Positions 1,400 through 27,883 of a stretch of DNA of 64,000 bases are shown piece by piece. Each line of letters opens with the position of its first letter. The stretch's first letter is position 1. The position numbers and the translations under genes are program-made. The DNA is from an uncultured delta proteobacterium (lineage in GTDB: Bacteria > Desulfobacterota > WTBG01 > CAIYCZ01 > CAIRTM01), in assembly GCA_903881505.1 (NCBI GenBank), contig CAIRTM010000047.1, positions 16,248 through 80,247 on the forward strand, read 5' to 3'. The notes under the pieces were generated by a model. The model was given only the letters and a program-made list of their open reading frames with translations, had not been told where the DNA came from and did not search any database.

Positions 1400-1604
1400 T
1401 TTTAAAATAAAGCGTTCCAGCCATACGTGCCCACAACACATTCCCGGGGCAGCATGAAAAGTCCGCACAGCGCCGGCATTGCATCCCGGAAGGCTGATCT
1501 GGCGCCGTTCAAGGATACACGACAATTATGATGCGAACCGGCAGGCCGCCCTCTGCCCTGCGCCCTCAACACACATAACCGCCCACTATACACAGTTCTC
1601 TGCC

Positions 1605-3176
1605 ATGTCATCCTGCAGCACATGGTTCCATACAGCAAATGCACGCTCCCTGATTTTCTATGCGGCCGCGACGCTGATTATCACAGGGCCCCGCATCGCG
1701 CGCATGATCTACCCGGAACTGATGATTGAAGATGATTTTTATCTGCAAAGCGCTTTTCTCATATCCGCCGGTGAACAGCCGTATAACGATTTTACCCTGA
1801 ACCACTTCCCGCTCCTGGAATTCATGCTTGCCGGGCTGCTGCGGCTGTTTTCCAATCCGCTCATGGTCGCGGAAACGTTCACACAGGTATGCATTGCCAT
1901 TAATACACTGGTGGTGCTGTGCATCGGCACGCGGCTGGACAGCCGGCGCACAGGCCTGGCGGCTGCAGCCCTGTATGGCTGCAGCGCCCTCATTTTCAAG
2001 TATCATCTCTACGAACGGGAGGTTTTCGCAACCACGTTCATCGTGACGGGCCTCTACTGCTGGTTTTTTATGCGCGGGAGTTCTGCCAGAGCAGTTATTA
2101 CCGCCCTTCTCTTTTGTGCCGCCTCGCTGGTCAAGCTCACCTGCATTGTACCCTTTGCGGCACTCCTGCTCTGGGCCTGCCGGCACAGGCAGTATCGTCT
2201 CTGCTGCAGTATGCTGGCCACCTGCGCACTGTCGCTTGCCGCATGCAGTTGTGCCCTGTATGCGCTGTATGGACGGGAATTTATTTTTCAAGTCTACATA
2301 TTCCACTTCATGAAGGGCTGCCGCTCTTTGCCCGGACGAATTGAATGCTTCGTGAACAACACCGATATTACTGTTTTTCTGGGTGTTCTTGGTTTGCTTT
2401 TCTACCGCCCTCGCGACACGCACGGACACTGGGGCCTGATAAAGCTGCTGATGCTCGCCTACCCGGTGTTTTTCATCTTCATCAGCTCAACGGTATGGCC
2501 TCACAATCTGCTTGAAATGCTGATTTCAGCCGCGCTTGTCGGCGGCGCCTTCATATCGCGCATGCTGCAGGGCATACCAAAGGCGGCACGGTCCGGAGCG
2601 CTGATGAAAATTATTGCACCGCGCCCGCTGCTCATCAGCGCAGCTGCTGCTGTCTCGTTTTTTTTGATACAGCCCTGGGAGATTGAAGGCGCGCGCGACA
2701 GGCTCAACCACTCTTACGGCTTTGGCGCTATCCCGCGCAGCGAAATACGCGAGGCCTCCGGCTACATACAAGAGCATACGCGGCCCGATGACTACATCTG
2801 CAGCCCCGTCCCGCTCGTTGCCTTCGCGAGCTCACGGAAGACAGTGCTGAACTACTGGGAAAGCACCGGGGTCGAGGCCTGGCTTCGTGAACGCATCGCA
2901 CACCAGGGCCTGTGGAGGACATTTCTTGAAACCCGAAAAGTCCGTTTTGTTGATCTCATAGCCGAAACATCCCTGCGCCAGACACAAACAGCTTTCCGCC
3001 GGCAGGCGCTGCTGAAGAAGCCCGTGCTTGTCGTGAAGCCGGATTTTCCGGGTGAAGAGCCTTTCGGGGCCAGACTGGCGCTGGGGATCATCGATGAATA
3101 TGCCGGAAACGTGCTGTTCCGAAACCGTTTTTTCATAATCTCCGAATGCAGAATGCGGGCACCTGATGGAAATTGA
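1605..3176 (+). CDS. polytopic membrane protein, GT-C-type glycosyltransferase-like (PMT_2/ArnT-like)
   Basis: ORF track 1479..3176. The protein has many hydrophobic segments of TM length. The N-terminal stretch YPELMIEDDFYLQSAFLISAGEQPYNDF after the first TM helix resembles the GT39/83 (ArnT/PMT) loop. Start at 1605 (MSSCSTW...) was chosen so that the first TM follows the start; alternative starts are 1479 and 1704. Confidence 0.45.
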   Translation: MSSCSTWFHTANARSLIFYAAATLIITGPRIARMIYPELMIEDDFYLQSAFLISAGEQPYNDFTLNHFPLLEFMLAGLLRLFSNPLMVAETFTQVCIAINTLVVLCIGTRLDSRRTGLAAAALYGCSALIFKYHLYEREVFATTFIVTGLYCWFFMRGSSARAVITALLFCAASLVKLTCIVPFAALLLWACRHRQYRLCCSMLATCALSLAACSCALYALYGREFIFQVYIFHFMKGCRSLPGRIECFVNNTDITVFLGVLGLLFYRPRDTHGHWGLIKLLMLAYPVFFIFISSTVWPHNLLEMLISAALVGGAFISRMLQGIPKAARSGALMKIIAPRPLLISAAAAVSFFLIQPWEIEGARDRLNHSYGFGAIPRSEIREASGYIQEHTRPDDYICSPVPLVAFASSRKTVLNYWESTGVEAWLRERIAHQGLWRTFLETRKVRFVDLIAETSLRQTQTAFRRQALLKKPVLVVKPDFPGEEPFGARLALGIIDEYAGNVLFRNRFFIISECRMRAPDGN

Positions 3177-4974
3177 TCCGAAAACCCCACGGAATCGGGA
3201 CAGGACGCCGGTACGATATGCATGCCTGTTTTTTATTACAGGGCTGGTCCTGTGTGTCCTGTATGCAACCGCCGGCACGCGCCTTCTCACCGTCTCATTC
3301 ACATACTACCTGCACAGCTACAGCTTTCAGCTGAGAAACGTCCTGTTCCTCCTGCCGGCGCTTGTTTGCTTTGCATGTGCCCTGTCCCCCGTATTCGTGC
3401 CGGTGTACAGCACGCTGCGGTCTTGTATCATGAAGCCCAGCCCCTGGATATTTTTATCCGTAACGTGCGTCGCTTTCATGACTGCCGCCGCCGGGGTATG
3501 CCTTGCGGTCCTTGGAGGAATCCCGCACATACAGGACTCTATTGTCCAGCTTTTCCAGGCGCGTATTTTCGCCTCCGGCTCTATCGCCCTGCCCTCGCCC
3601 GCACACGCGCATTTTTTTGACATGCAGTATGTAATTGATAACGGCACGATCCGCTATGGAAAATACTTCTTCGGACAGAGCATATTCCCGCTGATCGGCG
3701 TATTGATCGGGGCTCCGTGGATCATCAACCCGATTGTCGGCGCAATGACCATAATCGTTACATACATGCTGGTTAAAGATATCTGCGACGAAACAACCGC
3801 CCGCGTCACAACGCTTCTGCTGCTGGTTTCGCCTTTTTATCTGTTTATGCATGCCTCATTTATGTCGCACGGACCCCATCTGCTGCTCATGACCTCCTGT
3901 CTTTTTTCGATCATCAGGGCGTGTACCACCGGCCGTGCCCGGCACTGCCTTGCCGCCGGGCTGCTTTTCGGTATTGCCATCACGATCAAGCCGTATGACT
4001 CTTTGCTTTTTCTTCTCCCGTTTTTTTTATACGCCTGTACCGTGTGTATGCGCATGCCGGGCTTTGCCGCCAAGGTCCTCCTGTTTGCGCTGCCTGTCGG
4101 CATATGCGCGGCAGGCATGCTGTTGTACAACAAACTTCTGTTCGGCGGTTATTTAACGACCGGGTATACTCAGTACTCGCCGCACTTCAAGCTGGGCTTC
4201 GGTTCGCAAATCGGAGAAGTGTGCCTGGGGGGCGGCACCCTGCCGGGGCATACGCCGCTGGAGGGGATCAAAAGCTGCGCCAAGCTTCTGCAGGCGCTGT
4301 GTGACGACCTGTTCGGCTGGCCCGGCCTTTCGCTCGTCTTTGCATGCATGCTGTTTCTATGCTGCAGGACAACCCGCTGGGAGCGGCTGATGGCCCTGTC
4401 ATTCGCCTGTATCGTTACAGGCTATTTTTTCCTTTTCGCCACGCGCTACTCGATCTGCTACGGCCCCCGCTACTACTTTGTCAGCCTGCCGGCACTTGCA
4501 CTGTTTACCGCCAGGGGAATACTCCAATGTCCGCGACTGCTTGCGGCCGGTTTCCTGCACCGCTGGACGGGCGGCCCGGGCAGCCGAAAAGCCGCGGCAG
4601 CACTGTGCGTGATTTTTCTTATTGTCCTTTCCGGCTCACTGTACATGCCCCGGATGATAAAAACCTACGGGGATTCCTACTGGAACGTTGACAAAAAACT
4701 GGTCAACCTCGTGCGCGAACAGGGCCTGAACAACGCGCTTATTTTCGTGGAGTCCGGATACTACCGTAAGCCCCATGCTGCGCCGGACTATTACAATTCG
4801 GTATTCAATTACAATGCGCTTGATCTGGACGGCCCTGTTGTCTATGCCCGCGATTTCGGCCCGGATGAAAACCGGATACTCATGGAACACTACCCGGGCC
4901 GGGACTATTACCTGTACAGGAACACCGGCGAAGCCGGGCGCGCGCTGATCAAAATCACCGCCCCCGGCACATGA
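3166..4974 (+). CDS. polytopic membrane protein, GT-C-type glycosyltransferase-like
   Basis: ORF track 602 aa. About 12 hydrophobic helices with a hydrophilic C-terminal domain (~130 aa). Overlaps the upstream gene by 11 nt, suggesting translational coupling. Confidence 0.45.
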   Translation: MEIDPKTPRNRDRTPVRYACLFFITGLVLCVLYATAGTRLLTVSFTYYLHSYSFQLRNVLFLLPALVCFACALSPVFVPVYSTLRSCIMKPSPWIFLSVTCVAFMTAAAGVCLAVLGGIPHIQDSIVQLFQARIFASGSIALPSPAHAHFFDMQYVIDNGTIRYGKYFFGQSIFPLIGVLIGAPWIINPIVGAMTIIVTYMLVKDICDETTARVTTLLLLVSPFYLFMHASFMSHGPHLLLMTSCLFSIIRACTTGRARHCLAAGLLFGIAITIKPYDSLLFLLPFFLYACTVCMRMPGFAAKVLLFALPVGICAAGMLLYNKLLFGGYLTTGYTQYSPHFKLGFGSQIGEVCLGGGTLPGHTPLEGIKSCAKLLQALCDDLFGWPGLSLVFACMLFLCCRTTRWERLMALSFACIVTGYFFLFATRYSICYGPRYYFVSLPALALFTARGILQCPRLLAAGFLHRWTGGPGSRKAAAALCVIFLIVLSGSLYMPRMIKTYGDSYWNVDKKLVNLVREQGLNNALIFVESGYYRKPHAAPDYYNSVFNYNALDLDGPVVYARDFGPDENRILMEHYPGRDYYLYRNTGEAGRALIKITAPGT

Positions 4975-6346
4975 CCATCCCCCTGCCGCGGGCCAGCGCC
5001 GCATGAATCAGAGCCCCGAGCAGAACGGAGGTGAGCGTCGCGACAGGGAAGGAATAGCGATACATAACCGCAACGAGCAGGTACGGGAATGCATACCCGA
5101 GGATGTATGCATACATGCATCCGCATTGACGATTGAAGCACCTCCGTCCGATCAGCGCAAAAACCACGAGCGTTACGCCCGGAACGGCATAGCCGATATA
5201 CCGCAGGGCCATCCAGAACGATATGCCCGGCAGTTCCGCGTGATATCTGAAAACAAAGAAAAAGTACATGAGTCTCCTGGCGGTTGTGCGTGCAAAACGG
5301 CCGGGATCGAAGTCCCGCTTAAAGAGCTCCCGTTTCGACAGGATATATGCGCCCTCGCCAAGCCGGCTGTAGAGGAGGAACTCCTGCCCGTTAACGGCAG
5401 GATGCTGGCGTGCGAACACGGCATCATCAAGGTAGCCGTCGGATTCCGGTGAATTGCCGTTGTACAGCTCGAAAGCTCCGTTTGATTTGATAAAGCTGAG
5501 TGTGCCGGTTCTGTTTTTTTGATACAGAACATACGGCCCGATAACACAGCCCATGACAATAACCGCCGCGCACACATGCGCGGCGGCGCGAGCCGGATGT
5601 GCCCTGTGACAGGCCGTATGGGCGGCCAGCACGGCCGCGATGGCGAACGCAAGGACGGGAACGAACAAAAGCGCGACACCGGCGCACAACGAAACCGCCA
5701 GCAGCCGCACGAATGTGGTGCGTGCGAAGTACCGCATGCACAGGTAGAACACCAGCACAAAAAAGAAAGAATGAAGGTTAAAATCCTGCTGGTATCCCTG
5801 GAAGTACAGCTCAACATCCTGCAGTGAGAGCGCGAATGCCGCTGCGCCTGCAATCGCCGCGCCGGCGCTTGAAAACATGAGCAGGCCCAGGCGGTACACC
5901 ATCACGATGATTGCCGCGGACAGTACCAGTGAAATACCGAAGAGAAAAAAAAGGGCCCCGGGTGAAAAGCACCCGAACAGCTTGAAGGCGAGGCAATAGA
6001 CCATCACCGATCCCGGAGCGACCCATGCGGTAGGGCCGGTGCTGCCTCCGAAAGGGCTTGCAAACCCCTGCTGTGCGCAGACGATTGCATGCGCTATGTT
6101 GCCGATCTCAAAGCCGAAATCACTGACCCAGGGGAGCTCCGGTGCCGCCATACCGGGCTTCAGCGGACATGCGGCCGTTTGAAACAGCGCCGGATGGCGC
6201 TGCACGTTCATATACAGCAGGCCGATGCGCAGCAGCAGGGCGATGGCAATAATACACGGAAGGATTGTTCTGGTATGTCTCATGGCGATCTGCACGTCAG
6301 CGTTCCGCGCTCTCATGCACGGCCCACGCACCTGACGCCTTTTCAA
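4955..6346 (-). CDS. polytopic integral membrane protein (uncharacterized, possible GT-C-like)
   Basis: ORF track 463 aa, highly hydrophobic. An alternative start at 6283 (MRHTRTIL...) is possible. Its 3' end overlaps the convergent gene 3166..4974 by 20 nt. Confidence 0.4.
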   Translation of the reverse strand: MKRRQVRGPCMRARNADVQIAMRHTRTILPCIIAIALLLRIGLLYMNVQRHPALFQTAACPLKPGMAAPELPWVSDFGFEIGNIAHAIVCAQQGFASPFGGSTGPTAWVAPGSVMVYCLAFKLFGCFSPGALFFLFGISLVLSAAIIVMVYRLGLLMFSSAGAAIAGAAAFALSLQDVELYFQGYQQDFNLHSFFFVLVFYLCMRYFARTTFVRLLAVSLCAGVALLFVPVLAFAIAAVLAAHTACHRAHPARAAAHVCAAVIVMGCVIGPYVLYQKNRTGTLSFIKSNGAFELYNGNSPESDGYLDDAVFARQHPAVNGQEFLLYSRLGEGAYILSKRELFKRDFDPGRFARTTARRLMYFFFVFRYHAELPGISFWMALRYIGYAVPGVTLVVFALIGRRCFNRQCGCMYAYILGYAFPYLLVAVMYRYSFPVATLTSVLLGALIHAALARGRGMVMCRGR

Positions 6347-6354
6347 TACATGCT

Positions 6355-7935
6355 TTACCGCAGGGGCTTTGTTCGATCCGTATTCGCATACAGCCGCCAG
6401 GGGCCGCTTTGTTTGACAATGCTGAAGTGCCGTAATTTCTCCCGGGCCTGCGCGGGGATATCGCCGCGCACCAGCAGGTAATCAAGGCCGCCGTACCGGC
6501 CGTCATATTCGCACGCCCCCTTACCCACCCAGCCGATATACCTGGGCAGCACATCCGTACCCACCCGGCGGCGGATGGCAAACGAGCGCTCGTCGGTAAG
6601 CCGCGTTGTGCTGATGCCCCGCCGCCAGACCATGCAGTAGTCCGGAAAGTTGTCATACATGGAAACATTACGGAAGCGGTAGTCATAGATCAAGCCGCCG
6701 ACAACGGCATCGGCGGCGCAGCCGGCGAACAGCTCCTCATTAAAACCGGCGTTGGCGGAGTCAAAAGCTCGGAAACACTGCAGCCACAGGGCAGCGTGCA
6801 CAGCGACGGCAGCGCATATGCATATTTTCATCCACGCAGGCAAAACGCGCGGAGCCGCAAGGCTGCCGGCTATAATGACGCCCAGGAAAACCAGGACCGA
6901 AAACCGCTGGTATAAAAAACTGTAGCCGGGCAGCGCCACCGGCATAAAAAGCGCACATGCCACGCTGCATCCCAGAAAAATACATATGCAGTAAAACCCG
7001 GCCGGGCGCGCGGTTCTGCCCTTGTGTCGTTTTTGCAGAAACGGGAATGCAGCAAAAAACAAGGTGGCCAGCGAAAATGCAGCGGCCGCCGCATATCCGG
7101 ACAGCGTGCCTGACAGCCGGAAATTATCATGGATCATGACAGCTCCGCGCTGCCAGAAAGAGCCCGCAAATGAATGCCGGTAATAGTGCAGCAGCGCCTG
7201 CATCATGGAGGATCCGCCGTACTCGCGGGAATCGATTGTATACCAGGCAGCGAAAAGCACCATGCCCGGGATGCAGATCCCCAGATGCACGGGGAAACGG
7301 CGCCATGCGCCGTGGCGGCACATGTCAAACAGCACGCAGGCGGCATACACCATGACGGCATACAGGAACGCCATGGCGTGCATGAAAAAAATACCGGGCA
7401 GCAGCACGGCAATCCACAGTGCCGCCGGCGCGCTTCGATGTTCGATATAATCGATTACAGCGTACAGCAGGAAGAGCAGGGCCGGTACTGCGATGGTAAA
7501 GCCCGTAAACCCGTAGCAGACGTTGATGTTGTAAAGAAACAGGAACGCCAGCAGGCCATACCATGGATTGCCTGTGCAGCGGCCGATCAGCAGCGCTGCT
7601 CCCGCAACGAACAGCACTGCATACATGACGTAAAAAAACCTGTTGGCCGCTTCGACACCCGGAAACAGCTTAGAACCGCAGAGCACCGTATGAACCACAT
7701 TCGGCCGCGGAAACATATTCAGCGAAAAAATTTTTTCAAACTGATTATCCGGATTGCCATAGGATTTATATATTTCAGCAAGCGCCAGATGGTTGGGCAT
7801 GTCCAGAAAGGGGTACAGCCTCTGAAAGCCGAAATTATAACTGTGGACGCTTAAAAGGACGATAAACGCAAGCCAGAAGAACTTGTCCCTGAACCCAGGG
7901 CTGCGCGCAGGCTCCTCGCTTTTCACGGCTATCAT
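6355..7935 (-). CDS. polytopic integral membrane protein (uncharacterized)
   Basis: ORF track 526 aa with more than 10 hydrophobic helices. ATGA start/stop overlap with the upstream gene 7932..9500. Confidence 0.4.
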   Translation of the reverse strand: MIAVKSEEPARSPGFRDKFFWLAFIVLLSVHSYNFGFQRLYPFLDMPNHLALAEIYKSYGNPDNQFEKIFSLNMFPRPNVVHTVLCGSKLFPGVEAANRFFYVMYAVLFVAGAALLIGRCTGNPWYGLLAFLFLYNINVCYGFTGFTIAVPALLFLLYAVIDYIEHRSAPAALWIAVLLPGIFFMHAMAFLYAVMVYAACVLFDMCRHGAWRRFPVHLGICIPGMVLFAAWYTIDSREYGGSSMMQALLHYYRHSFAGSFWQRGAVMIHDNFRLSGTLSGYAAAAAFSLATLFFAAFPFLQKRHKGRTARPAGFYCICIFLGCSVACALFMPVALPGYSFLYQRFSVLVFLGVIIAGSLAAPRVLPAWMKICICAAVAVHAALWLQCFRAFDSANAGFNEELFAGCAADAVVGGLIYDYRFRNVSMYDNFPDYCMVWRRGISTTRLTDERSFAIRRRVGTDVLPRYIGWVGKGACEYDGRYGGLDYLLVRGDIPAQAREKLRHFSIVKQSGPWRLYANTDRTKPLR

Positions 7936-9500
7936 TGCACACCACCCTCGTCTGCCTTCTGCAGGCGGAATAAAACGCTCCCCGCCTGACGTGCCCAGTG
8001 AAAGCCCGTCCGGTGTTGCTCAGCGATAAAATTCAGCGCCGGCGCAACAACGAAAACGGGGCGTTCAGACAGCAGCTTCTCCAGGGCTGCGGGATTCCCG
8101 CCATAGCGGCCTGCCATAGCAGTGTGATTCTCCAGCGCAACGCCCCCGGCACCGGGCGCTGTCATCCGGGTCAGCAGCAATGGGTAGTACGAAGTGCTGT
8201 CACACACGATCATGCCGTCAGGGGCGGCTTCGCTCAATGCTGCCGAGGCAAAGCGCTCGGCTGATCGCTCGGTATGCTTCCAGGGCACAATCCAGTAGCG
8301 CATTTCATCCCGGAACGGCAGAACGCGGTCGCGTTTGACGCTGATATGCAGCCTGTTCATGGCGGCGGGCAGCACGGCATACGTCAGCGGCATCAGGACA
8401 ATTGAAGTCAGGCAGGCGGCGATAACCGCATTCCTCCGCGCGGCCGTTCGGCGTGCGAGGGCATCAATGCCCACCGCCATGCCCAGGCTGAACAGCACCA
8501 GTGACGGCAGAATAAAGGTAAACTGATCAGGCACTGAGTAACGCAGGAAAAAAACACCGTGCAGGCCCAGCAGGGCGAACAGCGGCCAGGCGGTCTGTCT
8601 GCCGGCTGTTGTACGCATCTGTATCCAGCCAACGATGCCGAGGAACAGACCGGCATGTACAAAATTCAGGCTGCTTAAGGCGGCATTGACGCCCATCAGG
8701 CCCCAGCCCGCGCGTACATTAAAGACCTGCCCGGCATACCCGCTGAACAGCATTGATGCAGCGGCCGCCTGTATGTCACCGGTTTGCATGGCCGTACGCA
8801 TCACCAGCCAGGCAAGCGGAGCCGCCCCGCACACACATGCAGCCGCGGCGGCCGGTACGGCTGCGAATTCAAGACGGCGGCCTTTTATGAAAACCAGCAT
8901 GCACGCGGCATAAACCGGCACGCTCAGCAGCGCCAGATTATGGATCCCGATATTCAAACCGAGAAGCAAAAAAAGGCCGGAAAACCCCTGTATCGAAGGG
9001 CGGCGAAGACAGGAAAAAAGCGCGATCAGCTCACCGCTGAAAAACGCCGCGTTCCATGTGTACACTTCAGTAATGGTCGACAGCCACCACGGCGTATGCA
9101 TCACCGCCAGCATGCCGGCTGTCAGCAGGCCTGTCCAGCTCCTGCCGGTTAGCATCCAGCCGAGGATCGCAACGTTGGCCAGTGTAACGGCCATGCCTGC
9201 TCCGCTGCACAGGCTCAGGCGCAGCCATTCAGCTCCGAAGGGCAGCAGCAGAAAAAGCCGTGCTATGATTATATAGAGCGGATGTGCAAGCGCAAGGCCA
9301 AGACTGCCTGTATAGTCACCCGTCAGCGCCCTGAACTGCAGCATGCCGCTGTCCTGCCAGCCGACACCCGGCTGCGCTGTCAAAGCGTACAGAACAAATC
9401 CGGCAGATGCGACACCGAACCAAAGGGCGCTGCGTGCGAGCGGACTCCCGGGAAAGCGCGATATCGGCTGCTGCATGGCCATGGATACCCCCCTACACAC
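7932..9500 (-). CDS. DUF2723/TMEM260-like polytopic membrane protein (GT-C-like)
   Basis: ORF track 522 aa. The N-terminal region (GVGWQDSGMLQFRALTGDYTGSLGLALAHPLYIIIARLFLLLPFG) resembles the DUF2723 family (TMEM260-like) and has many TM segments. Overlaps the PHP gene by 8 nt. Confidence 0.45.
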   Translation of the reverse strand: MCRGVSMAMQQPISRFPGSPLARSALWFGVASAGFVLYALTAQPGVGWQDSGMLQFRALTGDYTGSLGLALAHPLYIIIARLFLLLPFGAEWLRLSLCSGAGMAVTLANVAILGWMLTGRSWTGLLTAGMLAVMHTPWWLSTITEVYTWNAAFFSGELIALFSCLRRPSIQGFSGLFLLLGLNIGIHNLALLSVPVYAACMLVFIKGRRLEFAAVPAAAAACVCGAAPLAWLVMRTAMQTGDIQAAAASMLFSGYAGQVFNVRAGWGLMGVNAALSSLNFVHAGLFLGIVGWIQMRTTAGRQTAWPLFALLGLHGVFFLRYSVPDQFTFILPSLVLFSLGMAVGIDALARRTAARRNAVIAACLTSIVLMPLTYAVLPAAMNRLHISVKRDRVLPFRDEMRYWIVPWKHTERSAERFASAALSEAAPDGMIVCDSTSYYPLLLTRMTAPGAGGVALENHTAMAGRYGGNPAALEKLLSERPVFVVAPALNFIAEQHRTGFHWARQAGSVLFRLQKADEGGVQ

Positions 9501-11358: not shown

Positions 11359-11433
<75 letters not shown>

Positions 11434-11441
11434 AAAAAAAA

Positions 11442-11518
11442 TGGAGCGGGAAACGGGATTTGAACCCGCGACTCCGACCTTGGCAAGGTCGTACTCTACC
11501 ACTGAGTTATTCCCGCTC
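11442..11518 (-). tRNA. tRNA-Gly (GCC)
   Basis: The reverse complement is GAGCGGGAATAACTCAGTGGTAGAGTACGACCTTGCCAAGGTCGGAGTCGCGGGTTCAAATCCCGTTTCCCGCTCCA. The anticodon loop is TTGCCAA, so the anticodon is GCC. It has a GGTTCAAATCC T-arm. Confidence 0.8.
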
Positions 11519-11659: not shown

Positions 11660-12364
11660 TCATGTGGCGTCTCCAGGTTGATTCTCTGCGTGGGGCGGCT
11701 GCCGTACCGGGACGGTTTCGTTCATGAGCTGCACGACAGGATAGTCGTCAAAATAGTCAATAATATTCAAACAGGCGTACGTCTGTTCGAGGCGCACTGC
11801 GCTGTTCAGGTCAAGTCCGAGGGCATCGCACAGCACCACCCTGTTCAAGCCCCCGTGGCCGACCAGAAGGACTGTGCCGCCGGCATGTTCGCGAAGCAGC
11901 CTCTTCAGGCGCGGCAGGGCCCGTTCGCGCACATCCGCAAAGCTCTCGCCTCCCGCAACGCGAAACGAGCCGATGCTGCGGGCGCGTTCGCTGAATTCCT
12001 CCTGGAAGCGCTCCAGGATTTCGGCAAGCGTCATGCCCTCCCAGCGGCCGATATTGATTTCGCGGAATTCAGGACACGCAACCGGCGCAATGCCGCGTGC
12101 GCCGGCGAGCAGACGCGCCGATTCAACCGTGCGCACAAGGTCGCTGCAATAGATTGCGTCGATCGGCACGCCTGCCAGACGGCCCTCAAGCAAGCGTATC
12201 TGCGCGCGGCCCTCGTCGCTGAGTGCAACATCCCGGTGGCCGACATAGCGCCATTGGCGCGAGGTCACCAGTGCCCCATGGCGCGCCAGGTACAGCCGTG
12301 TGCGCGCAGCATCTCCTGCAGCCTTGCCAAGGGCAGCCGGTATATATCCTGATTCAGCTGCCAT
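11660..12364 (-). CDS. histidine phosphatase family protein (phosphoglycerate mutase-like / CobC-like)
   Basis: The catalytic RHG motif (LARHGA) lies near the N-terminus. 234 aa with a PGM-like fold pattern. Confidence 0.6.
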   Translation of the reverse strand: MAAESGYIPAALGKAAGDAARTRLYLARHGALVTSRQWRYVGHRDVALSDEGRAQIRLLEGRLAGVPIDAIYCSDLVRTVESARLLAGARGIAPVACPEFREINIGRWEGMTLAEILERFQEEFSERARSIGSFRVAGGESFADVRERALPRLKRLLREHAGGTVLLVGHGGLNRVVLCDALGLDLNSAVRLEQTYACLNIIDYFDDYPVVQLMNETVPVRQPPHAENQPGDAT

Positions 12365-12566: not shown

Positions 12567-13394
12567 CTAGAGGTTGTACATGTCGTGCAGAAGCCTGACC
12601 AGGGCGATGTTGTCGGAATGCCCGGTCATATTCGCCGTGATTTTCGCCCTGAGGGGACGGCCGAGCAGATAGAGATCGCCCACCATATCCATAATCTTGT
12701 GCCGCACGAACTCGTCCGGGAATCGCAGGTCCGTGTTCACGATTTTTTCATCATCAATCAGGATAAAATTATTGAGCCGGCCCCCGCTTGCCAGGCCGCG
12801 CTCATTGAGCGCCTCGATATCCTTCAGGAACCCGAACGTGCGTGCCGGGGCGATCTCGCGTTTGAAATCCTCGGCATCCGCCATGACGAACCTGTATTCC
12901 TGCCGGCCGACCGGCCGGGGATAGTTCAGGGTATAGTGAACCGAAAATACATCGGCAGGCTCAACCGTCAGGAATTTCTTCGTACGATCGGCCTCGCCCA
13001 GGCTGTGGCGCCTGTCGACAATGATTTCATCCAGGGGTTCTTCCTGCTCTTCAATCCCGGCGTCCTCGACCATCTGGCAGAAATCAAGGGCCGATCCGTC
13101 CATGATGGGAACCTCGTTATTGATCTTGACCATCAGGTTCGAAATCCGGTAGGCATGCAGAACCGCCAGGAGATGCTCGATGGTGCGGGCCGCCGCCCCG
13201 TCAGCCTGCAGGCTGGTTGCATAGTCGGTCGACACGACATGGTGTATATTGGCCCGTACCGTTTCACCGCTTGATATATTGCCGAACAGTATCCCGCTGC
13301 CCGGGGGCAGCGGCGTCAGGATAAGCCCGGTCTTGTCGCCGGAGTGCAGCCCGCGGCCGCTCAGCACCATGCTGCGCTTGAGCGTGCGCTGCAT
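12567..13394 (-). CDS. lpxC: UDP-3-O-acyl-N-acetylglucosamine deacetylase LpxC
   Basis: MQRTLKRSMVLSGRGLHSGDKTGLILTPLPPGSGILF matches the LpxC N-terminus; HKIMDMVGDLYLLG and other conserved blocks are present. ATG at 13394. There is no stop codon between it and the upstream regulator ORF (see findings). Confidence 0.8.
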   Translation of the reverse strand: MQRTLKRSMVLSGRGLHSGDKTGLILTPLPPGSGILFGNISSGETVRANIHHVVSTDYATSLQADGAAARTIEHLLAVLHAYRISNLMVKINNEVPIMDGSALDFCQMVEDAGIEEQEEPLDEIIVDRRHSLGEADRTKKFLTVEPADVFSVHYTLNYPRPVGRQEYRFVMADAEDFKREIAPARTFGFLKDIEALNERGLASGGRLNNFILIDDEKIVNTDLRFPDEFVRHKIMDMVGDLYLLGRPLRAKITANMTGHSDNIALVRLLHDMYNL

Positions 13395-14735
13395 GCGGTG
13401 CTGCGTCCGGTTCTCCCGCGTCAGGATGATGTTGTATTCGCCGACATACTTCTTGAGCTGCTTTTCACTGACGCCGATCCGTGCGGCCGTTCGCTTGATA
13501 TCACGGTCATTGCGGCGCAGGTGGTACAGCAGGAAATTCTTGCGCCAGGCATCCTCGGCCTCCTTCATGGTGGCGTAGCGCTCGTGGGAACGCGAAACGT
13601 TGTACTGCATGTCGTCGCGCACGGAAAGAGGAATATCAAGCGCTGAAACGGTCCTGGAATGCAGCGACACTACGATCTTCTCAACCAGGTTCTTCAGTTC
13701 CTTGACATTGGCGGGCCAGTCGTAGTTCATGAGCATTTCAAGCGCCTCGTCATCGAAGCTCTTTTCCCGCACGCCGTACTCGCTGCAGGACAGGGTCATG
13801 AAATGCTTGAGCAGCAGCGGGATATCGCCGCGGCGCTTGCGCAGCGGCGGCAGGCTGATGCGCTCAGGGAAAGAATCTGCAAACGCGGCCGAGAGTTTGC
13901 CGGCCGCGCGCGCCTCATCGGCCTCAAGGACCGATGAGGTTACGACGCGCAGCTGCGGGTCCGCCTGGCGCTTGCGCAGAAATTCCGCGATGCGGTCCTG
14001 CAAAGCGATATCAAGCGCCTCCGCCGAGGCAAGGTACACGACCGCCCGGCCCGGCTGCGTCAGCAGCCCTGCCTTGCCGGAACTGTCGCCGAACAGTTCC
14101 AGGGAAGCCTCGTCGCAATCGTAAAGGGGACAGTTGAGCCTGTGGAACGAAGCGAAACGTCCGCTTTTCTCGCCGCCAATCAGCATCCGGGCCGCGATCT
14201 CCTTGCCGGTACCGACCTCGCCGCTCAAAAACACATGTGCTTTTGTCGCGGCAATTTTATCAATACGCCTGCGGATGTCGATAATCTCCGGCGCCTCACC
14301 GGTCAGCCTGCTGCGTTCGCGCGCAGCGGCGGACCCATCGACTGCCGCGGCGGCCTGCGCGGCGGCCTGCCATTTCTCGGTAATGCGCCTGACGGTATTG
14401 AGCACCACGTCGAGCGAAAAAGGCTTCTCGAGGAAATCAAACGCCCCCTGTTTCACCGCCTACACGGCCGTGTTGACCGTGCCGTGGCCGGTCATCATGA
14501 CCACCTCGATCGCGGAGTTGAAATCCTTGACGGCTTTCAGGGTTTCCATGCCGTCCATGCCGGGCAGCCATATATCCAGAAACACGATATCGACCGGCTG
14601 CGACTTGATAATGCGCATGGCCTGCGCCCCGTCGGATGCGCTCAGCAGCGTGTAGCCTTCGTCTTCAAGGCTGCCGGCAAGCGATGTGATGATGTTCTGC
14701 TCATCGTCTACCAGGAGGATGACCGGTGTTTTCAT
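13395..14735 (-). pseudogene. ntrX: NtrC/NtrX-family sigma-54-dependent response regulator, interrupted by an in-frame TAG and lacking its own stop codon
   Basis: Receiver domain (ORF 14460..14735, LLVDDEQNI...DIWLPGMDG), then TAG at 14460-14462. The frame continues as AVKQGAFDFLEKPF..., with Walker A GEVGTGKE, a sigma-54 AAA+ domain and a Fis-type HTH (AARIGVSEKQLKKYVGEY). It reads straight into lpxC after an 11-aa linker. Confidence 0.6.
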
Positions 14736-16990
14736 GCCGAAGATACCTTTCCAATGCTGACGGGCTGATTCACGGGCAGTTCGATCACAAAGCAGGTCCC
14801 GCGGGGATGATTGTCACGGACCCTGATATAGCCGCCGTGGTCGGCGATGATCGTGCTGACGATCGCCAGGCCCAGCCCGGTGCTGTCTTTTTTCGTGGAG
14901 AAATAGGGGTCGAATATTTTAGGCTTCAGTTCGGGGGGAACACCGCAGCCGTTATCGGCAACCTCGACCGTCACCATCTTCAGCCGGGAGTTGTAGCCCG
15001 TGCGCAGCACGATCCGGCCGTCATTTTCCAATGAGCCGACCGCGTTGTCAAGCAGATTAATCAGCACGCGCTTGATCTGGGCGCGGTCAAGGCTGAGCCG
15101 GCCGACGCTGCGGCCGGGCTCGAACACAAAGCTGATGTCCTTGCGGGCCTCGCGGTACAGCGTCAGCGTTTCCTCGATGATTTCATGGATGTCGTTGGCC
15201 CGCGGCTGCGTGGCCGGCATTTTCGCGAAGCTCGAAAATTCATTGACCAGCTTCTTGAGGTCGTCAACCTGCGCGACAATCGTGCCGAGGCAGTCAGCAA
15301 AAACGCCCTGCTCACGGCTGATCTGGGGCGCAAATTTCTTCAGCACGCGCTGGGCGTTCAGCTTGATCGGCGTGAGGGGATTTTTAATCTCGTGCGCGAT
15401 GCGGCGGGCGACCTCGCGCCAGGCGTAGGCGCGCTGGGCCTGCTGGATCTGGGTCAGGTCCTCGCCGACGAGCACAATCCCCATGTAGGTGCCGTCATCG
15501 TCGAACAGCATATTGGAACGCACATACACGTAGGCGGTCCGCTGCGCGAAGGTGAGCGTCACCTGGCGCTCCACCGCGCCGAGGTTGAAGCGCGTCATCT
15601 CGTCGATCAGCAGCTTCAGCGGACGCAGTTCATCGGAGGCGAACACCTCGGCGTAGGGATGCCTGAGGGCCTCATCCAGCGCCAGTCCGAACATGGCCTG
15701 GGCCGAAATGTTGAAATTTGTGATGACGCCGTCACGGTCGATGGATACGACCACGGCCGCGACATTCTCCAGCAGCGTTTCCATGTATATCCGGCGGTGG
15801 TCGAGCTCGGTGACCATGTCGCGCAGGTGGCGCGTGGTCTGCTCGACCTGCTCATGGCTCACGCGCAGGTCGCAGGTCATCTTGTTGAACGAATCGACCA
15901 GGACGCCGATTTCATCGTCGGCGGCCGGCTCGATCTGTACGTCGAGGTTGCCCTGGGCAATCTGCTCGGTGGCGCTGGCAAGCGAGCTGATCGGCACCGC
16001 GATGACTTTTGACAGATGAAATCCGAACCAGGTCGCCGAGAAGATGATCAGCAGCGTCACGACCGAGAGCAGGATCACATACAGGTACTTGATCGGATTT
16101 TTATAGAGCTTGAGCTTCTTATAGTCCTGGAACGCCCGGGCGATGCTGTCCATCTTCGACACGAGGCTGCGGGGCACGTAATAATTTACCACCATCACGC
16201 CCACCACATCCTTGCGCGACCAGCTCGAATACACCGGCACCACCCCCCGTATGATGTCGCTTTCGCCGGCGGGCTGAATGCGGATGATCTCCCTGCCGTC
16301 AAGCGCCTGCTGCACCAGGGACGACTCGGCGCTGATAAAGTTCGAGTCGGGCACCTGCGGATTCATGGCCCTCACCAGCTCCTCCTTCTGGGAGGAGTAG
16401 ACCTCGACCACGCCGAGATTGTACTCGGACTGCTTTTCGTTAATAAAATCGCGCAGGATGTCCAGATTCATCTGGGAGAGCAGCTTATTGTCGGTTATGT
16501 GGCGGGAGAGCTGCTTGGCGTAATAAAGGGCGTTGGATGAGGCGTTGTTGTAGTAGGCCTCGGTGACGCTGAAGGCCTCTTCAAGGGTGGTTTCAACCTT
16601 GAAACTGAACCAGTTCTCGATCGTGTTGGTGATGAATCCGATCGAAACCCAGAACAAAAGCAGTGTCGGCACCAGCGACAGCCCGACAAACGCGATGACC
16701 AGCTTGGCCCGCAGCTTTGATCCCAGGATGCCGCGCCTGCGCTCAAAGACCAGCTTTACCACGTTGCGCACGACCAGGTAGATCAAAAGCAGCAGCAGGA
16801 TGGCGTTTACGTTGATCAGCAGAAACACCGTCAGGTTCTGCGGCACCAGGGCCTCGCCGCGGCTGCCCGTGACGTACAGCAGCAGCGATGTCAGGGAAAC
16901 AACCAGCAGAATGATAAGGACAATAGCGGCCCGCTCGCGCCGGCGGCGCTGTTTTTCCTGCTTCGGGAGATCGGGGGCTTTCGCTTCCAT
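14732..16990 (-). CDS. ntrY: NtrY-like sensor histidine kinase (TM-HAMP-PAS-HisKA-HATPase_c)
   Basis: 752 aa with N-terminal TM helices, an H-box HEIKNPLTPIKLNAQ, a G-box GLGLAIV and N/G1 motifs. ATGA overlap with the downstream regulator. Confidence 0.65.
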   Translation of the reverse strand: MEAKAPDLPKQEKQRRRRERAAIVLIILLVVSLTSLLLYVTGSRGEALVPQNLTVFLLINVNAILLLLLIYLVVRNVVKLVFERRRGILGSKLRAKLVIAFVGLSLVPTLLLFWVSIGFITNTIENWFSFKVETTLEEAFSVTEAYYNNASSNALYYAKQLSRHITDNKLLSQMNLDILRDFINEKQSEYNLGVVEVYSSQKEELVRAMNPQVPDSNFISAESSLVQQALDGREIIRIQPAGESDIIRGVVPVYSSWSRKDVVGVMVVNYYVPRSLVSKMDSIARAFQDYKKLKLYKNPIKYLYVILLSVVTLLIIFSATWFGFHLSKVIAVPISSLASATEQIAQGNLDVQIEPAADDEIGVLVDSFNKMTCDLRVSHEQVEQTTRHLRDMVTELDHRRIYMETLLENVAAVVVSIDRDGVITNFNISAQAMFGLALDEALRHPYAEVFASDELRPLKLLIDEMTRFNLGAVERQVTLTFAQRTAYVYVRSNMLFDDDGTYMGIVLVGEDLTQIQQAQRAYAWREVARRIAHEIKNPLTPIKLNAQRVLKKFAPQISREQGVFADCLGTIVAQVDDLKKLVNEFSSFAKMPATQPRANDIHEIIEETLTLYREARKDISFVFEPGRSVGRLSLDRAQIKRVLINLLDNAVGSLENDGRIVLRTGYNSRLKMVTVEVADNGCGVPPELKPKIFDPYFSTKKDSTGLGLAIVSTIIADHGGYIRVRDNHPRGTCFVIELPVNQPVSIGKVSSA

Positions 16991-24063: not shown

Positions 24064-26313
24064 TTATCGCATGGAAAGCTGGCGGGTGATAAAAGCCCGG
24101 ATGGATTCGTTCAGATGGCGCGCTTCAAGCTCCGCCAGAAACCCATCCCATACCAGGGCATGGCGTTCAGCGGGCATCTGCTCCATCAGGCTGATGCAGC
24201 GCTGCCATTCAATCTCGAGTCCGCGCGCGTACATATCGCAGCTGAGCATGTCCGGCGGCAGGAGCCTGCGCCAGTAACGGCACAGCGTTTCAGCAAAGCC
24301 GCTTCCCACGCCGCGGTAAAAATCATCCTGCAGCGCGGCATCGAGTTTCCCGCCGACCGAGCTGTCGAGCGGATAATTGAGCGCATGCAGGGGATCAAAA
24401 AGCATCTCCGCGCCGACAAGCCTGCCGATACCCTGCACCGCACGCCCCCGGTATGCCGCCGGCACGGCATCAATATCGCGCATGAACAGGCCCTCGACCG
24501 TGCGGTCGTCATAGGCGCTCACGCGGTCGGTAAACTGCGGGCTGTATTCATTGACACTGCCGTTTCTGAAGCGTTCCAGGAACGCCCTGAAGAAAAACCG
24601 CTCTGAGGCCGGCATATTGCCGAGCAGCGCCGGGCGGTTCAGCAGAAAACCGTAATAGCGGTAGCCGAGCACCTGGGCGCCCCAGTTCGTATAAAAAATA
24701 TCGGGATAGCGCCCGGCGAGCGCCTGCACCCATGGCGCCTGCGCCTGCTCCGGCATGGCGTGCAGCACACGCAGCAGCCCGTATACAAGCGCGCCGCGCC
24801 ACGCCGCGGGGGTTTTTTCAATATAGCCGGCAATGCTCTCCGCCGGATCGGGCGTATCAAGCGCGCCAGAAGCAAGCCGGGCCGCCAGGGCGCGGAAGGC
24901 CTCCTCGCGGTTGTCATCCGGATAGCCTGCCGCAAGGGCTTCCGCGCTGCTGAACCCGGATGACCAGCGTGACGGGATCATCAGGCGGCTGGCATACTGG
25001 TCAAAGTTATACCCCTGGTACAGGAAAATTCTGCGCTCGTCCCCGCGCGAGAGCAGCCCTGCCGTACGCGCCAGATTGAACGCCGCGACCAAAACCACGA
25101 CAGACCATGCACAGGTTTTAAGGATCCCCGAGCGCGAAGCGGACAGCAGTGCCAGGCCGATGCCCGCGCACGCGAAATAAAAAGGGAAAAGAATGGTCAC
25201 CCACCGGCAGCGGATCACGTCGGCAGGCGCGAAGCTGGCGAATACGCCGATCGTGGGCCAGTATTCGAGCGGGTTGACCTGCATGGGGGAAAGAGCAAGG
25301 CACACAAGGAAAAAAACCGGGAACAGGGCGACAAACAGGCACAGCCGCTGCGGCACTGCGGACCGACGATTCCCTCCCCCGGGCAGGGCATTAACCGCGG
25401 CGGGAGCGCGCACGGACGCGGCTACGACAGCAATGCACGCTGCCAGCAGCAGAAGCGCGACGGCAGCTCCGGCCCAGCCGATCTCGCGTGAAGGGTAGCC
25501 GTAGCCCAGCGTATAGGGCACGGTATGGAAAAACGTCTGCGCAAACGATGCGGGCGACAGTGAAATGTTTTTAAAAAGTCCTGCCAGGAAGCTCCCGCCG
25601 CCGGCCGAGTAAAAGGCGGTGCGCCACAGCCAGGGCGCAAAACCGGCAAGGCCTCCCGCGCACAGGGCGCAGATAGCGCGCAAAGAAATCATCCGCGGCC
25701 TGCAGACAAGCACGAACAGCATGCAGAACGCGTTGAAAATGATATAGCTGTAGAACGCGTATGTGCCCAGCCCCGCGCACAGGCCGAAAAGACACCACAG
25801 CAGGAGCGGGACCTGTTTCGCATCTTTTTCGAGCATGCGGCAAAGGCATATCAGCTGCACGATCAGAATCTGGTTGATCATGTAATGCGAGCTGAACGTG
25901 CCGACCAGGCTGAGCCGGGCGAACATGGGCGGCGGCAGGGCGAACAGGGCCGCGCACACAAGCGCGGCCGTCCTGCCGCAATAGCGGTTGAGCAGATACA
26001 CCCAGCCGAGCATGCACGCGAGCGTGCTCAACAGCGCGCACAGCTTGACCGTGAACACCGAATGCCCGAACAGGGCTGCCAGCGGATACATGAGCAGGGC
26101 CTCGATCATCATGTCGCCCGAGCGCTGCTCATACTGATAGGCCATGACAGGCGCGCGCAGGGTGCCGTGCAGCAGGTCAAACGTCAGTGTGCCGGATACG
26201 GGCTCATCGAAACAGGGGTGGGATATGTGCGAGAAGCCGTAGAACATCACGGCAAAACGCGATGCGCCATACAGCGCTACCAGCACTATCAGAACAAGAT
26301 AAAAACGCTTCAT
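24064..26313 (-). CDS. GT-C-like polytopic membrane protein (PMT_2/ArnT-like N-terminal half) with ~370-aa C-terminal soluble domain
   Basis: 749 aa. The N-terminal ~380 aa are hydrophobic with more than 10 helices; the C-terminal half is hydrophilic and of unknown family. Confidence 0.45.
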   Translation of the reverse strand: MKRFYLVLIVLVALYGASRFAVMFYGFSHISHPCFDEPVSGTLTFDLLHGTLRAPVMAYQYEQRSGDMMIEALLMYPLAALFGHSVFTVKLCALLSTLACMLGWVYLLNRYCGRTAALVCAALFALPPPMFARLSLVGTFSSHYMINQILIVQLICLCRMLEKDAKQVPLLLWCLFGLCAGLGTYAFYSYIIFNAFCMLFVLVCRPRMISLRAICALCAGGLAGFAPWLWRTAFYSAGGGSFLAGLFKNISLSPASFAQTFFHTVPYTLGYGYPSREIGWAGAAVALLLLAACIAVVAASVRAPAAVNALPGGGNRRSAVPQRLCLFVALFPVFFLVCLALSPMQVNPLEYWPTIGVFASFAPADVIRCRWVTILFPFYFACAGIGLALLSASRSGILKTCAWSVVVLVAAFNLARTAGLLSRGDERRIFLYQGYNFDQYASRLMIPSRWSSGFSSAEALAAGYPDDNREEAFRALAARLASGALDTPDPAESIAGYIEKTPAAWRGALVYGLLRVLHAMPEQAQAPWVQALAGRYPDIFYTNWGAQVLGYRYYGFLLNRPALLGNMPASERFFFRAFLERFRNGSVNEYSPQFTDRVSAYDDRTVEGLFMRDIDAVPAAYRGRAVQGIGRLVGAEMLFDPLHALNYPLDSSVGGKLDAALQDDFYRGVGSGFAETLCRYWRRLLPPDMLSCDMYARGLEIEWQRCISLMEQMPAERHALVWDGFLAELEARHLNESIRAFITRQLSMR

Positions 26314-26375: not shown

Positions 26376-27704
26376 TCACAGGCTCCCGCGCAACGAGACC
26401 ATCTCCCGCGCCGCCTCTGCCGCGCGCATGCCGTCCAGCACGGCATCCTCCATGGCCGAATACACCCAGCGTCCGTAGCGGCCGGCGAGCGCAACGCCGC
26501 TGTCCCGGCACCAGTCCGCAACCATCTTCATGTCGTCGGGATACTCGCGGTGAAAAATGACATAGCCGTTTTCGATCAGGCGATAATCCATGAACAGGAT
26601 ATCATCGGGGCTTTTGAAAAGCCCCATCGTCAGCAGCAGCTCCACGCTTGCGCGTTTGAAGGCGGCTTCATCGGCGAGCGCGCCCTGGTGCGTGTGCTCG
26701 ATATAGGCCGCCGAGCGGCCCGGCGGGGCCATGGGCGCATGCGCGCTGCTGTAGAAGCCGACCCGGTAGGGCATGAAACGCTCTTCGGGAATATAGAACC
26801 AGTGGCCCGGATGCGCCGGCGGCGCTGTAAAGGCCGCGTTGCAGTAGCTGACCGAGGCGATTTTCATGCGGTCGGCAGCCGCATGCAGCCGGTCGGATTC
26901 ACCGCAGCGCACCAGACGCAGCAGATCGCGCAGGGGGATGGTGCTGACCAGCGCGCCGAAGCCGATCTCGTCGCCGCTCGCCAGGCGCGCCACTCTGCGC
27001 CGCATGTCGATGGCGACGGGACGGGCATCGAACATGAAGCGCTCCCGCGGGCACAGGCGGAAAAGAGCGGCCGGCAGCGCCCCGATGCCGCCGCGGGCCG
27101 GGTAGCTGAAGGTCGCGTTATAGCCCGCGCTGTCATGCCCGGGATCGGTGAGCGCGCCGTCGACGACCTGCTCGATGGTCGGCACCGGTATGTAGGTGTC
27201 GCACCAGTGGCAGGCGAATTCGCGCGGATGCACGGTATAGAGCTTTGAATTGTAGGGGATCATGAAATGCCGGGAAATGCCCTCGCCGAGGCTGGCCATG
27301 CACCACTCATAAAAATTCTCCGGCGGCCGCGGGCGGCCGCTTTCATAGCGCGCGCGGATAAAGCCCAGCAGGCATTCCCTGATCACCCGCGGCGGCAGGC
27401 CGAAGGTGTGCGACTGGAACGGATAGCAGGTGACGGTGCCGTGCGAAAAAACATGCGACCTGCGCTCAATCGTGACCCAGTCCACGCCCGGCAGCGAAGC
27501 GGCAAGCCGCCGCATCCGCTCATCGCGCATGTGCAGCCAGTGCCCTGTGCGGTCGAAGACAAAGCCCTGCTTTTCCTCGCTTGTGCACAGGCCCCCGGGT
27601 GCGCTGTTTTTTTCAACCACCAGGTACTCGTCCCCGGCCAGGTGAAAGGCCGCGGACAGCCCTGAAAGGCCGGCCCCGAGGATGAGCGTCCGTGTCGTTT
27701 TCAT
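26376..27704 (-). CDS. FAD-dependent oxidoreductase, amine-oxidase/protoporphyrinogen-oxidase-like (Glf-like not excluded)
   Basis: N-terminal dinucleotide-binding motif ILGAGLSGLSAAFHL...VVEK. Central block ENFYEWCMASLGEGISRHFMIPY. C-terminal LAGRYGRWVYSAMEDAVLDGMRAAE, which is the amine-oxidase family C-terminus. ORF track 26376..27725. Confidence 0.55.
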   Translation of the reverse strand: MKTTRTLILGAGLSGLSAAFHLAGDEYLVVEKNSAPGGLCTSEEKQGFVFDRTGHWLHMRDERMRRLAASLPGVDWVTIERRSHVFSHGTVTCYPFQSHTFGLPPRVIRECLLGFIRARYESGRPRPPENFYEWCMASLGEGISRHFMIPYNSKLYTVHPREFACHWCDTYIPVPTIEQVVDGALTDPGHDSAGYNATFSYPARGGIGALPAALFRLCPRERFMFDARPVAIDMRRRVARLASGDEIGFGALVSTIPLRDLLRLVRCGESDRLHAAADRMKIASVSYCNAAFTAPPAHPGHWFYIPEERFMPYRVGFYSSAHAPMAPPGRSAAYIEHTHQGALADEAAFKRASVELLLTMGLFKSPDDILFMDYRLIENGYVIFHREYPDDMKMVADWCRDSGVALAGRYGRWVYSAMEDAVLDGMRAAEAAREMVSLRGSL

Positions 27705-27883
27705 CGCATGCGCCTTCCTGCGCAAACGGCAGCCTCCGGCATGCCTTGCGCACGCCGGTTCCGAACCCGCTCTGACAGTATTAGTAGATATGCGCCTGTG
27801 TTTTCAAGGAAAAAAAGCACGGGATGCAAAAAAAGAACGGCCCGCCCGAGGGCTGCGGGCGGACCTGATGGCGGCGGCGCGTT

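Follow-up and report, generated by a model that had tools for sequence, protein, structure and literature searches.

The window analysed here, 64,000 nucleotides of contig CAIRTM010000047.1 (assembly GCA_903881505.1) from an uncultured delta proteobacterium, carries a gene in which an NtrX-like response regulator is joined in frame to LpxC. The fusion gene occupies positions 12567–14735 of the minus strand (722 codons plus a terminal TAG) and encodes, in this order, a receiver domain (REC), a degenerate AAA+ module, an AAA+ lid, a helix-turn-helix (HTH) region and LpxC; its frame is interrupted by a TAG at codon 92. The regulator–LpxC fusion is a genuine and widespread architecture, and the TAG is a private CAG-to-TAG change at Gln92 that lies outside the design of the fusion. 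Taken together, we read the locus, with a probability of about 80%, as encoding a conserved polypeptide of REC, ATPase-dead AAA+, lid, HTH, linker and LpxC that succeeded an older control of lpxC by sigma54 and NtrX, with a TAG private to this sequence.

A conserved fusion of an NtrX-like regulator and LpxC

On the minus strand the ATG at 14735 opens the receiver domain, and the stop codon of the upstream gene, ntrY, overlaps this start as ATGA. The ntrY gene (14732–16990, minus strand) encodes an NtrY-like sensor histidine kinase of 752 amino acids (aa) with NtrY_N, HAMP, PAS, HisKA and HATPase_c domains, according to the list of open reading frames (ORFs) and Pfam. Residues 1–91 of the fusion (14463–14735) hold D10, D11, the phospho-acceptor D54 and T82 and match positions 1–85 of 111 in the Response_reg model (E = 1.7e-22). 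After the TAG at 14460–14462 the frame continues as AVKQGAFDFLEKPF and is open for 629 codons, from a GTG at 14456 to the TAG at 12567–12569. Its first part (residues 93–120, 14376–14459) is the remainder of the receiver, beta5-alpha5 with the invariant K104, as assigned by alignment and by the secondary structure predicted with AlphaFold2 (AF2). In Pfam the 629-aa ORF matches Sigma54_activat (weakly, with 39 bits), AAA_lid_14 and LpxC (278 bits). Since the TAG cuts a single Pfam domain in two, the two ORFs do not adjoin by chance; the deposited record shows the gene as two products of 91 and 629 aa. Between the HTH region (...YVGEYNIILTRENRTQHR; ...EYNIILTRENRTQHR) and MQRTLKRS (ATG at 13394–13392) there is not a single stop codon. 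Our reading of the minus strand and of the ORF list thus confirms the layout in the original prediction, which had described a receiver that ends at the TAG before the frame resumes, a regulator that lacks a stop of its own before LpxC, and an upstream ntrY coupled through ATGA.

The same architecture recurs far beyond the window, in many uncultured bacteria of the sulfate-reducer type. In a search with the 629-aa ORF against a collection of 5.8 billion proteins, more than 100 cluster representatives of ~715–749 aa carry REC, Sigma54_activat, AAA_lid and LpxC (PF00072, PF00158, PF25601 and PF03331) in a single chain. These clusters reach down to 45% identity and stem from NCBI, JGI, ENA and Logan assemblies, and the carriers, where they are named, are metagenome-assembled genomes (MAGs) of Thermodesulfobacteriota, Desulfobacterota or Deltaproteobacteria. 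Full-length matches are also present in ten GTDB species-representative genomes. Intact fusion ORFs of 722–737 aa were found in 11 of the 13 fused loci that we fetched, in each of the 13 the fusion gene is directly preceded by ntrY, and the regulator–LpxC junction is stop-free in the two closest relatives (L001 and L002) too. Conservation was counted residue by residue in an alignment of 109 full-length fusion members. Residue 448, the presumed start of LpxC, is Met in only 13 of them, with Phe in 30, Tyr in 24, Cys in 12 and other residues in the rest, which implies that LpxC has no separate initiation and that the fusion is obligate. The ATG at 13394 is indeed in frame, but MQRTLKRS can hardly be called a canonical LpxC start, as it had been, when so few members have a Met there. 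The ortholog comparison that had been proposed as a test of a genuine architecture comes out in its favour, and the fusion is not unprecedented, as had been supposed, with at least 109 full-length cluster representatives.

On a rival view ntrX and lpxC are truly separate genes that only a fault of assembly or sequencing, such as a missed stop or a frameshift, has joined; it draws on nothing but the prior expectation that the two genes should be separate. More than 100 independent clusters and the 13 fetched loci share this junction without a stop, and the residue at the supposed LpxC start is mostly not Met, leaving this view with practically no probability. In public records the fusion proteins are filed under the automated names "UDP-3-O-acyl-N-acetylglucosamine deacetylase" or "NtrX", and in the literature searched (full text) we found no description of a REC–LpxC or NtrX–LpxC fusion. 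A 619-aa protein (P0026) was considered as a case of recurrent REC loss and was rejected: in its locus, L003, the frame is broken near codon 103, where one nucleotide has been inserted in an A-run. Indels on the L003 contig also split ntrY, dnaJ, tatC, a U32 peptidase gene and a histone-deacetylase-like gene; with its genes so broadly fragmented, the proteins of this contig are unfit as evidence for truncated architectures.

The LpxC domain (residues 448–722, 12570–13394; E = 1.3e-82) is followed directly by the terminal TAG (12567–12569) and passes curated cutoffs, with 278 bits for PF03331 (cutoff 27) and 251 bits for TIGR00325 (cutoff 187). Alignment to the LpxC structures from P. aeruginosa, E. 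coli and Aquifex places E520, H521, T633, H679, K680, D683, D687 and H706 opposite E. coli E78/H79, T191, H238/K239/D242/D246 and H265, and all eight are invariant in 109 of 109 members. By their roles in E. coli, H521, H679 and D683 would be the zinc ligands, and E520, H706, T633, K680 and D687 the catalytic residues. The LpxC domain is thus predicted to be catalytically complete. It ends 8 residues beyond the one that aligns with position 273 of the 305-residue E. coli enzyme, so the C-terminal tail of the latter is missing; in E. coli this tail is required for FtsH-dependent turnover (Fuhrer et al. 2006, as cited in PMC3333781).

The modules in front of LpxC have fared differently from one another. 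In the receiver D10, D11, D54, T82 and K104 are invariant in 109 of 109 members, and the domain is predicted to be phosphorylatable. The AAA+ core (residues ~146–295, 13851–14300) was aligned to NtrC4 (3dzd), and its motifs were assigned from this alignment and from motif tables. It retains Walker A (GEVGTGKE, 14199–14222), whose Gly and Lys are invariant across the fusion members. The Walker-B Glu position is never Glu in the 109 members (Ser 63, Ala 40, Gly 4), and the window protein has lost the Walker-B Asp-Glu. The GAFTGA loop is replaced by a shortened variable stretch (ELFGDSSGKAGLL) and GAFTGA is missing from all 109 members; the family has likewise lost the sensor-I Asn and the arginine fingers. 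The AAA+ module keeps its P-loop without the residues needed for hydrolysis, and by these motifs it should be ATPase-dead. The lid (residues 296–375, 13611–13850; AAA_lid_14 E = 4e-21) is well conserved, with the motif PPLRxRRxDI and invariant R301 and D304. The putative C-terminal three-helix Fis-type HTH region (residues ~390–433, 13437–13568) was located by alignment to the NCBIfam NtrX model, which extends to position 443 of 452, and by AF2 helices at 390–408, 413–420 and 424–433; T416, A417 and L427 are nearly or fully invariant. Pfam HTH_8 gave no match in this region, which may still bind DNA. A short variable linker of low conservation (residues 434–447, 13395–13436), free of stop codons, leads into LpxC. 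The best regulator model is NtrX (NCBIfam NF051870), with 77 + 143 bits against an equivalog cutoff of 600. The label of an ntrX-like sigma-54 response regulator, given in the original prediction, holds as far as this model goes and fails for the AAA+ module, which has lost every sigma54-activation motif.

All modules are under purifying selection, as judged by the ratio of nonsynonymous to synonymous substitution rates (dN/dS) relative to the two closest relatives, which is low everywhere: 0.03–0.08 for REC, 0.12 for the middle module and 0.046 for LpxC. AF2 modelling of the full-length fusion, with a 74-sequence alignment, gives confident domains (mean predicted local distance difference test score, pLDDT, of 83.6), a predicted template modelling score (pTM) of 0.47, and low-confidence linkers at residues 129–140 and 441–443, the latter with pLDDT below 50. 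In the model the domains are arranged as beads on a string, and no fixed interface is predicted.

The in-frame TAG at codon 92

The TAG differs by a single C-to-T change on the coding strand from the CAG present in L001 and L002 (plus-strand position 14462 is A instead of G). Codon 92 is CAG in all 11 intact fused loci, and Gln in 94 of the 109 family members; the TAG therefore replaces a sense codon, a point that the original prediction had left to ortholog alignment. P0121, a 722-aa protein from an independent NCBI/ENA assembly, is identical to the conceptual product at 721 of 722 positions when compared at the protein level, with Gln92 instead of the stop. Among ~15 billion proteins the 91-aa truncated product occurs on one contig only, the same contig that carries the other proteins of the window. 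The flanking proteins are found identically on 5–9 contigs from several samples, which indicates a near-clonal population that has been assembled many times. Codon 92 in this population is CAG on two contigs and TAG on one. Two origins are left for the TAG, an error in sequencing or consensus calling and a nonsense allele that is very recent or of low frequency; we consider them roughly equally likely. A sequence error at one or both of the anomalous sites had been suggested from the start; the TAG may be one, and the junction, shared by more than 100 clusters, is not.

Were the TAG a real and recent nonsense allele, the gene would yield a 91-aa receiver stub and, after re-initiation, a receiver-less 629-aa protein of degenerate AAA+, HTH and LpxC that is uncoupled from NtrY. 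We listed every stop in the window that separates same-frame open stretches of at least 80 codons each; those examined (in pstC/pstA/pstB and after a bilin-reductase-like gene) fall between separate genes, and no split gene is apparent among the Pfam-scanned window genes other than the fusion gene. Random consensus errors thus appear to be rare here. Motif-linked miscalling was also considered and is unsupported, as the window has GTGCAG 71 times and GTGTAG 8 times, so that GTGCAG is not systematically miscalled. In addition, a GTG (14454–14456) lies 3 nt past the stop; the 629-aa ORF starts there in a purely mechanical sense, and no other site is plausible for re-initiation if the stop is real. 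Against a nonsense allele, the change is a singleton whose 91-aa product is confined to one contig, the two further contigs of the near-clonal population read CAG, no good Shine-Dalgarno sequence was found before the GTG, and REC residues 1–91 have a dN/dS of 0.05–0.10, that is, no relaxed constraint. On balance we put such an allele somewhat below an even chance. If the stop is real, LpxC could come from re-initiation at GTG 14456, without its receiver, or from near-cognate read-through with Gln.

More far-reaching interpretations of the TAG fare worse. In an established pseudogene, ntrX-lpxC would be inactivated and decaying while another lpxC is at work, and an in-frame stop within a conserved domain is what one might expect to see; the original prediction had mentioned a pseudogenised ntrX. 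The stop is nevertheless the only lesion, 721 of 722 residues match an intact allele from another assembly, dN/dS is 0.03–0.12 per module, the catalytic residues are all intact, and a second lpxC was not found in the 64-kb window. A single lesion combined with low dN/dS makes decay unlikely, and we abandon the pseudogene as a serious candidate. Still less probable is that the TAG is read as a sense codon by design, be it with pyrrolysine, with a suppressor tRNA or by programmed read-through. When a near-cognate tRNA reads through UAG, Gln is usually inserted, and Gln is the ancestral residue at codon 92. However, TAG stands at codon 92 in no ortholog, and it is used as an ordinary terminator, both at the end of the fusion gene, where it coincides with the normal C-terminus of the family, and at the end of several long window ORFs including guaB. 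No pyl genes were seen among the Pfam-scanned window ORFs, and no suppressor tRNA is present in the 64-kb window, where a tandem of tRNA-Cys(GCA) and tRNA-Gly(GCC) on the minus strand (11359–11516, between the His_Phos_1 and FMN_red genes) makes up the only tRNAs. The use of TAG as terminator together with this tRNA set renders recoding very unlikely.

In one independent, distant fused locus (L013, 47% identity) a single nucleotide has been inserted just ahead of the same Gln92 codon, at 5140–5160 (GCC ATC g CAG GCC). Its siblings L010–L012 read ATCCAGGCC at this site (ATC-CAG-GCC), which holds a CCAGG Dcm-type site. Judging from the contig naming, the insertion is probably a long-read miscall at a methylated site. 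The CCAGG site in the siblings explains the coincidence at codon 92, which is not meaningful. The TAG is relevant for annotation only and has little biological weight.

Unfused relatives, short forms and gene neighbourhood

Among unfused proteins, the regulatory half is closest to NtrC-family regulators linked to ntrY, with 30–36% identity over residues 6–447. All 15 unfused NtrX neighbours examined keep the Walker-B FLDE, the AATN-type sensor I and the FRxDLyyRL arginine-finger motifs, and most of them have a canonical GAFTGA, a few carrying variants. Accordingly, Sigma54_activat scores ~249 bits in unfused NtrX compared to 39 bits in the window protein. Five unfused loci, in three Desulfacinum genomes, an NC10 MAG and a Syntrophobacterales MAG, have the gene order lpxC, DUF4390, ntrY, ntrX. 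We scanned both strands for the sigma54 -24/-12 pattern TGGYAY-N5-YTGCH. In each of these five loci the sole match per ~13 kb sits 67–87 nt upstream of lpxC (L029:2043–2058; L024:2041; L038:2054; L025:2608; L052:1935), and the chance of a match in such a 100-nt window is ~6e-4 per locus. In other ntrYX loci the number of matches (6) is what chance predicts (6.1), and neither the 64-kb window nor the 13 fused loci (151 kb) contain the pattern. The promoter position implies that transcription of lpxC would depend on sigma54 and NtrX in Desulfacinum and in the NC10 and Syntrophobacterales MAGs. Two published findings agree with this. For the sigma54 response regulator DVU2934 of D. vulgaris, lpxC (DVU2917) is the only mapped target (PMC3333781; PMC4641369), and in S. 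fumaroxidans lpxC adjoins the operon of the orthologous response regulator (PMC3333781). In R. sphaeroides, lpxC mRNA rises 8.8-fold when NtrYX is lost, and LPS (lipopolysaccharide) rises as well (PMC7240162).

We infer from these comparisons that covalent fusion replaced an ancestral transcriptional control of lpxC by sigma54 and NtrX, and that the enhancer-binding machinery decayed afterwards. The unfused loci and the DVU2934–DVU2917 pair resemble the fusion in that an NtrC-family regulator with the order REC, AAA+, lid, HTH is associated with lpxC. They differ in that the unfused loci have an intact enhancer-binding protein, with GAFTGA, FLDE and arginine fingers, and a separate lpxC behind a sigma54-type promoter, and also in that DUF4390 precedes ntrY there and is absent upstream of ntrY in the window. 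The regulatory half of the fusion might conversely still be an active sigma54 enhancer-binding protein to which LpxC is merely tethered, given that Sigma54_activat is weakly detected and that Walker A, lid and HTH are conserved. With GAFTGA, the Walker-B Glu, the sensor-I Asn and the arginine fingers gone in 109 of 109 members, and with no sigma54-type promoter found in the window or the fused loci, we regard an active enhancer-binding protein as highly improbable.

A second architecture joins REC to LpxC through a linker of ~40–60 aa, in proteins of ~430–456 aa. These short forms occur in Nitrospirota, Bdellovibrionota and one Thermodesulfobacteriota MAG (L021:5950–7320, 456 aa; L015:5968–7266, 432 aa; further loci are L014, L016, L018, L019, L026–28, L033, L034, L036, L037, L039, L041, L043, L067 and L077). 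They are abundant in Nitrospirota MAGs, with REC and LpxC in 120 of the 120 top clusters, and we found no description of them in the literature searched. Like the window fusion, they join an NtrX-like receiver N-terminally to a complete LpxC; unlike it, they are without the AAA+, lid and HTH modules and without a nearby ntrY. Their LpxC is 43–62% identical to that of the window, compared to 36–40% for unfused neighbours, and this closer relationship suggests that REC and LpxC form the functional core.

Directly 3′ of the fusion gene lies a His_Phos_1 family gene (11660–12364, minus strand; Pfam), which is also found in this place in L001, L003, L004, L005 and L008, that is, in the closer clade only. 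An ArnT-like glycosyltransferase gene (PMT_2, 3166–4974) stands inside a block at 1479–9500, surrounded by four large ORFs of 463–565 aa without a Pfam match (1479–3176, 4955–6346, 6355–7935 and 7932–9500). In L001 and in ERZ1426xxx contigs, synteny with the fusion gene extends to part of the block, and the block may be a cell-envelope glycosylation cluster. No other LPS genes were found among the Pfam-scanned ORFs of the window. A bilin block on the minus strand (27884–28870, 34836–35531, 38746–40698 and 26376–27725) contains two ferredoxin-dependent bilin-reductase-like ORFs, one of them with an N-terminal 4Fe-4S domain, and close to them a GAF-domain histidine kinase gene and a flavin amine-oxidase-like gene. 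Bilin-reductase-like ORFs would not be expected in a Thermodesulfobacteriota MAG that is presumably non-phototrophic, and they might point to sensing by means of bilins. A 749-aa ORF at 24064–26313 (minus strand) has no Pfam match at E ≤ 1e-6.

A possible mode of LpxC control

The conserved modules suggest a way in which the fusion may work. NtrY would sense an envelope-related signal and phosphorylate D54 of the fusion. Phosphorylation would alter the conformation or the oligomeric state of the dead AAA+ scaffold, or, in the short forms, act directly on LpxC, and it could shift the activity, the oligomeric state or the stability of LpxC. The resulting LpxC activity would set the flux into lipid A, and the HTH may contribute autoregulation. 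That phosphorylation controls the enzyme directly, that it replaced the sigma54/NtrX circuit in the lineage of the long form, and that the ATPase was left behind as a nucleotide-binding, hydrolysis-dead scaffold is a proposal that we rate just short of evens.

The fusion has parts in common with several known systems. As in the NtrY/NtrX systems of alpha- and betaproteobacteria, an NtrY-type kinase is encoded directly upstream in the same operon, with overlapping stop and start codons, and the Brucella NtrX structure 5m7n ("Nitrogen assimilation regulatory protein") matches fusion residues 6–428 with E = 1e-48 (also 5m7o and 5m7p). NtrYX of R. sphaeroides is likewise tied to the cell envelope and to lpxC and LPS levels (PMC7240162). 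The fusion differs from these systems in scoring far below the NtrX cutoff and in carrying a complete C-terminal LpxC. Another natural LpxC fusion is the bifunctional LpxC-FabZ (PRK13188), whose model scores 204 bits on the window LpxC, below its cutoff of 465; there the partner is a C-terminal fatty-acid dehydratase, whereas here it is an N-terminal signalling module. In E. coli, FtsH, LapB (YciM) and YejM control LpxC through regulated degradation via the C-terminal tail, which is missing in the fused LpxC. Closest in principle are response regulators with enzymatic output such as CheB, PleD/WspR, RpfG and PorX, in which a receiver is joined to an enzyme; here too an activity set by phosphorylation would be expected, and the receiver matches in NCBIfam include PleD, PorX and NosR-type models. 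The window protein departs from this class in that its output is a housekeeping LPS enzyme and in that a relic of AAA+ and HTH modules lies between receiver and enzyme.

Several points weigh against our overall reading of the locus. The control of LpxC by phosphorylation is something that we infer, and with a pTM of 0.47 the inter-domain geometry is unsure, so that a mechanism based on a particular interface cannot be claimed. The search for a second lpxC, which gave none, covered the 64-kb window and the ±6-kb flanks of fused loci, a scope that limits the claim that the fused gene is the sole lpxC. As lpxC precedes ntrY in the unfused loci and follows the ntrX sequences in the fusion, the fusion requires a rearrangement in addition to a lost stop. 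That DVU2934 is orthologous to NtrX-type regulators rests on a remark on synteny in PMC3333781. In Halodesulfovibrio (Desulfovibrionaceae, L030) the order is DUF4390, ntrY, epimerase, ntrX, an HD-GYP regulator is absent between ntrY and ntrX, and the layout of DVU2931-2933-2934 is not reproduced. Finally, the otherwise clean window speaks against a generally error-prone assembly.

The flux through LPS synthesis is controlled by LpxC, which is also a major antibiotic target. To our knowledge, the regulation of LpxC outside Gammaproteobacteria is largely unknown. A receiver-fused LpxC that is always paired with an NtrY-type kinase in the fetched fused loci leads to a testable hypothesis, the control of lipid A flux by phosphorylation. 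If true, it would constitute a mode of LPS homeostasis distinct from the enterobacterial proteolytic route through FtsH, LapB and YejM. The fusion family is also a "Rosetta-stone" link in support of the connection between NtrYX and lpxC known from the genetics of D. vulgaris and R. sphaeroides. The fusion is a variation on known kinds, namely response regulators with enzymatic output, NtrYX systems and post-translational control of LpxC. In this lineage a transcription factor appears to have been turned into an allosteric or scaffolding appendage of the enzyme that was formerly under its control.

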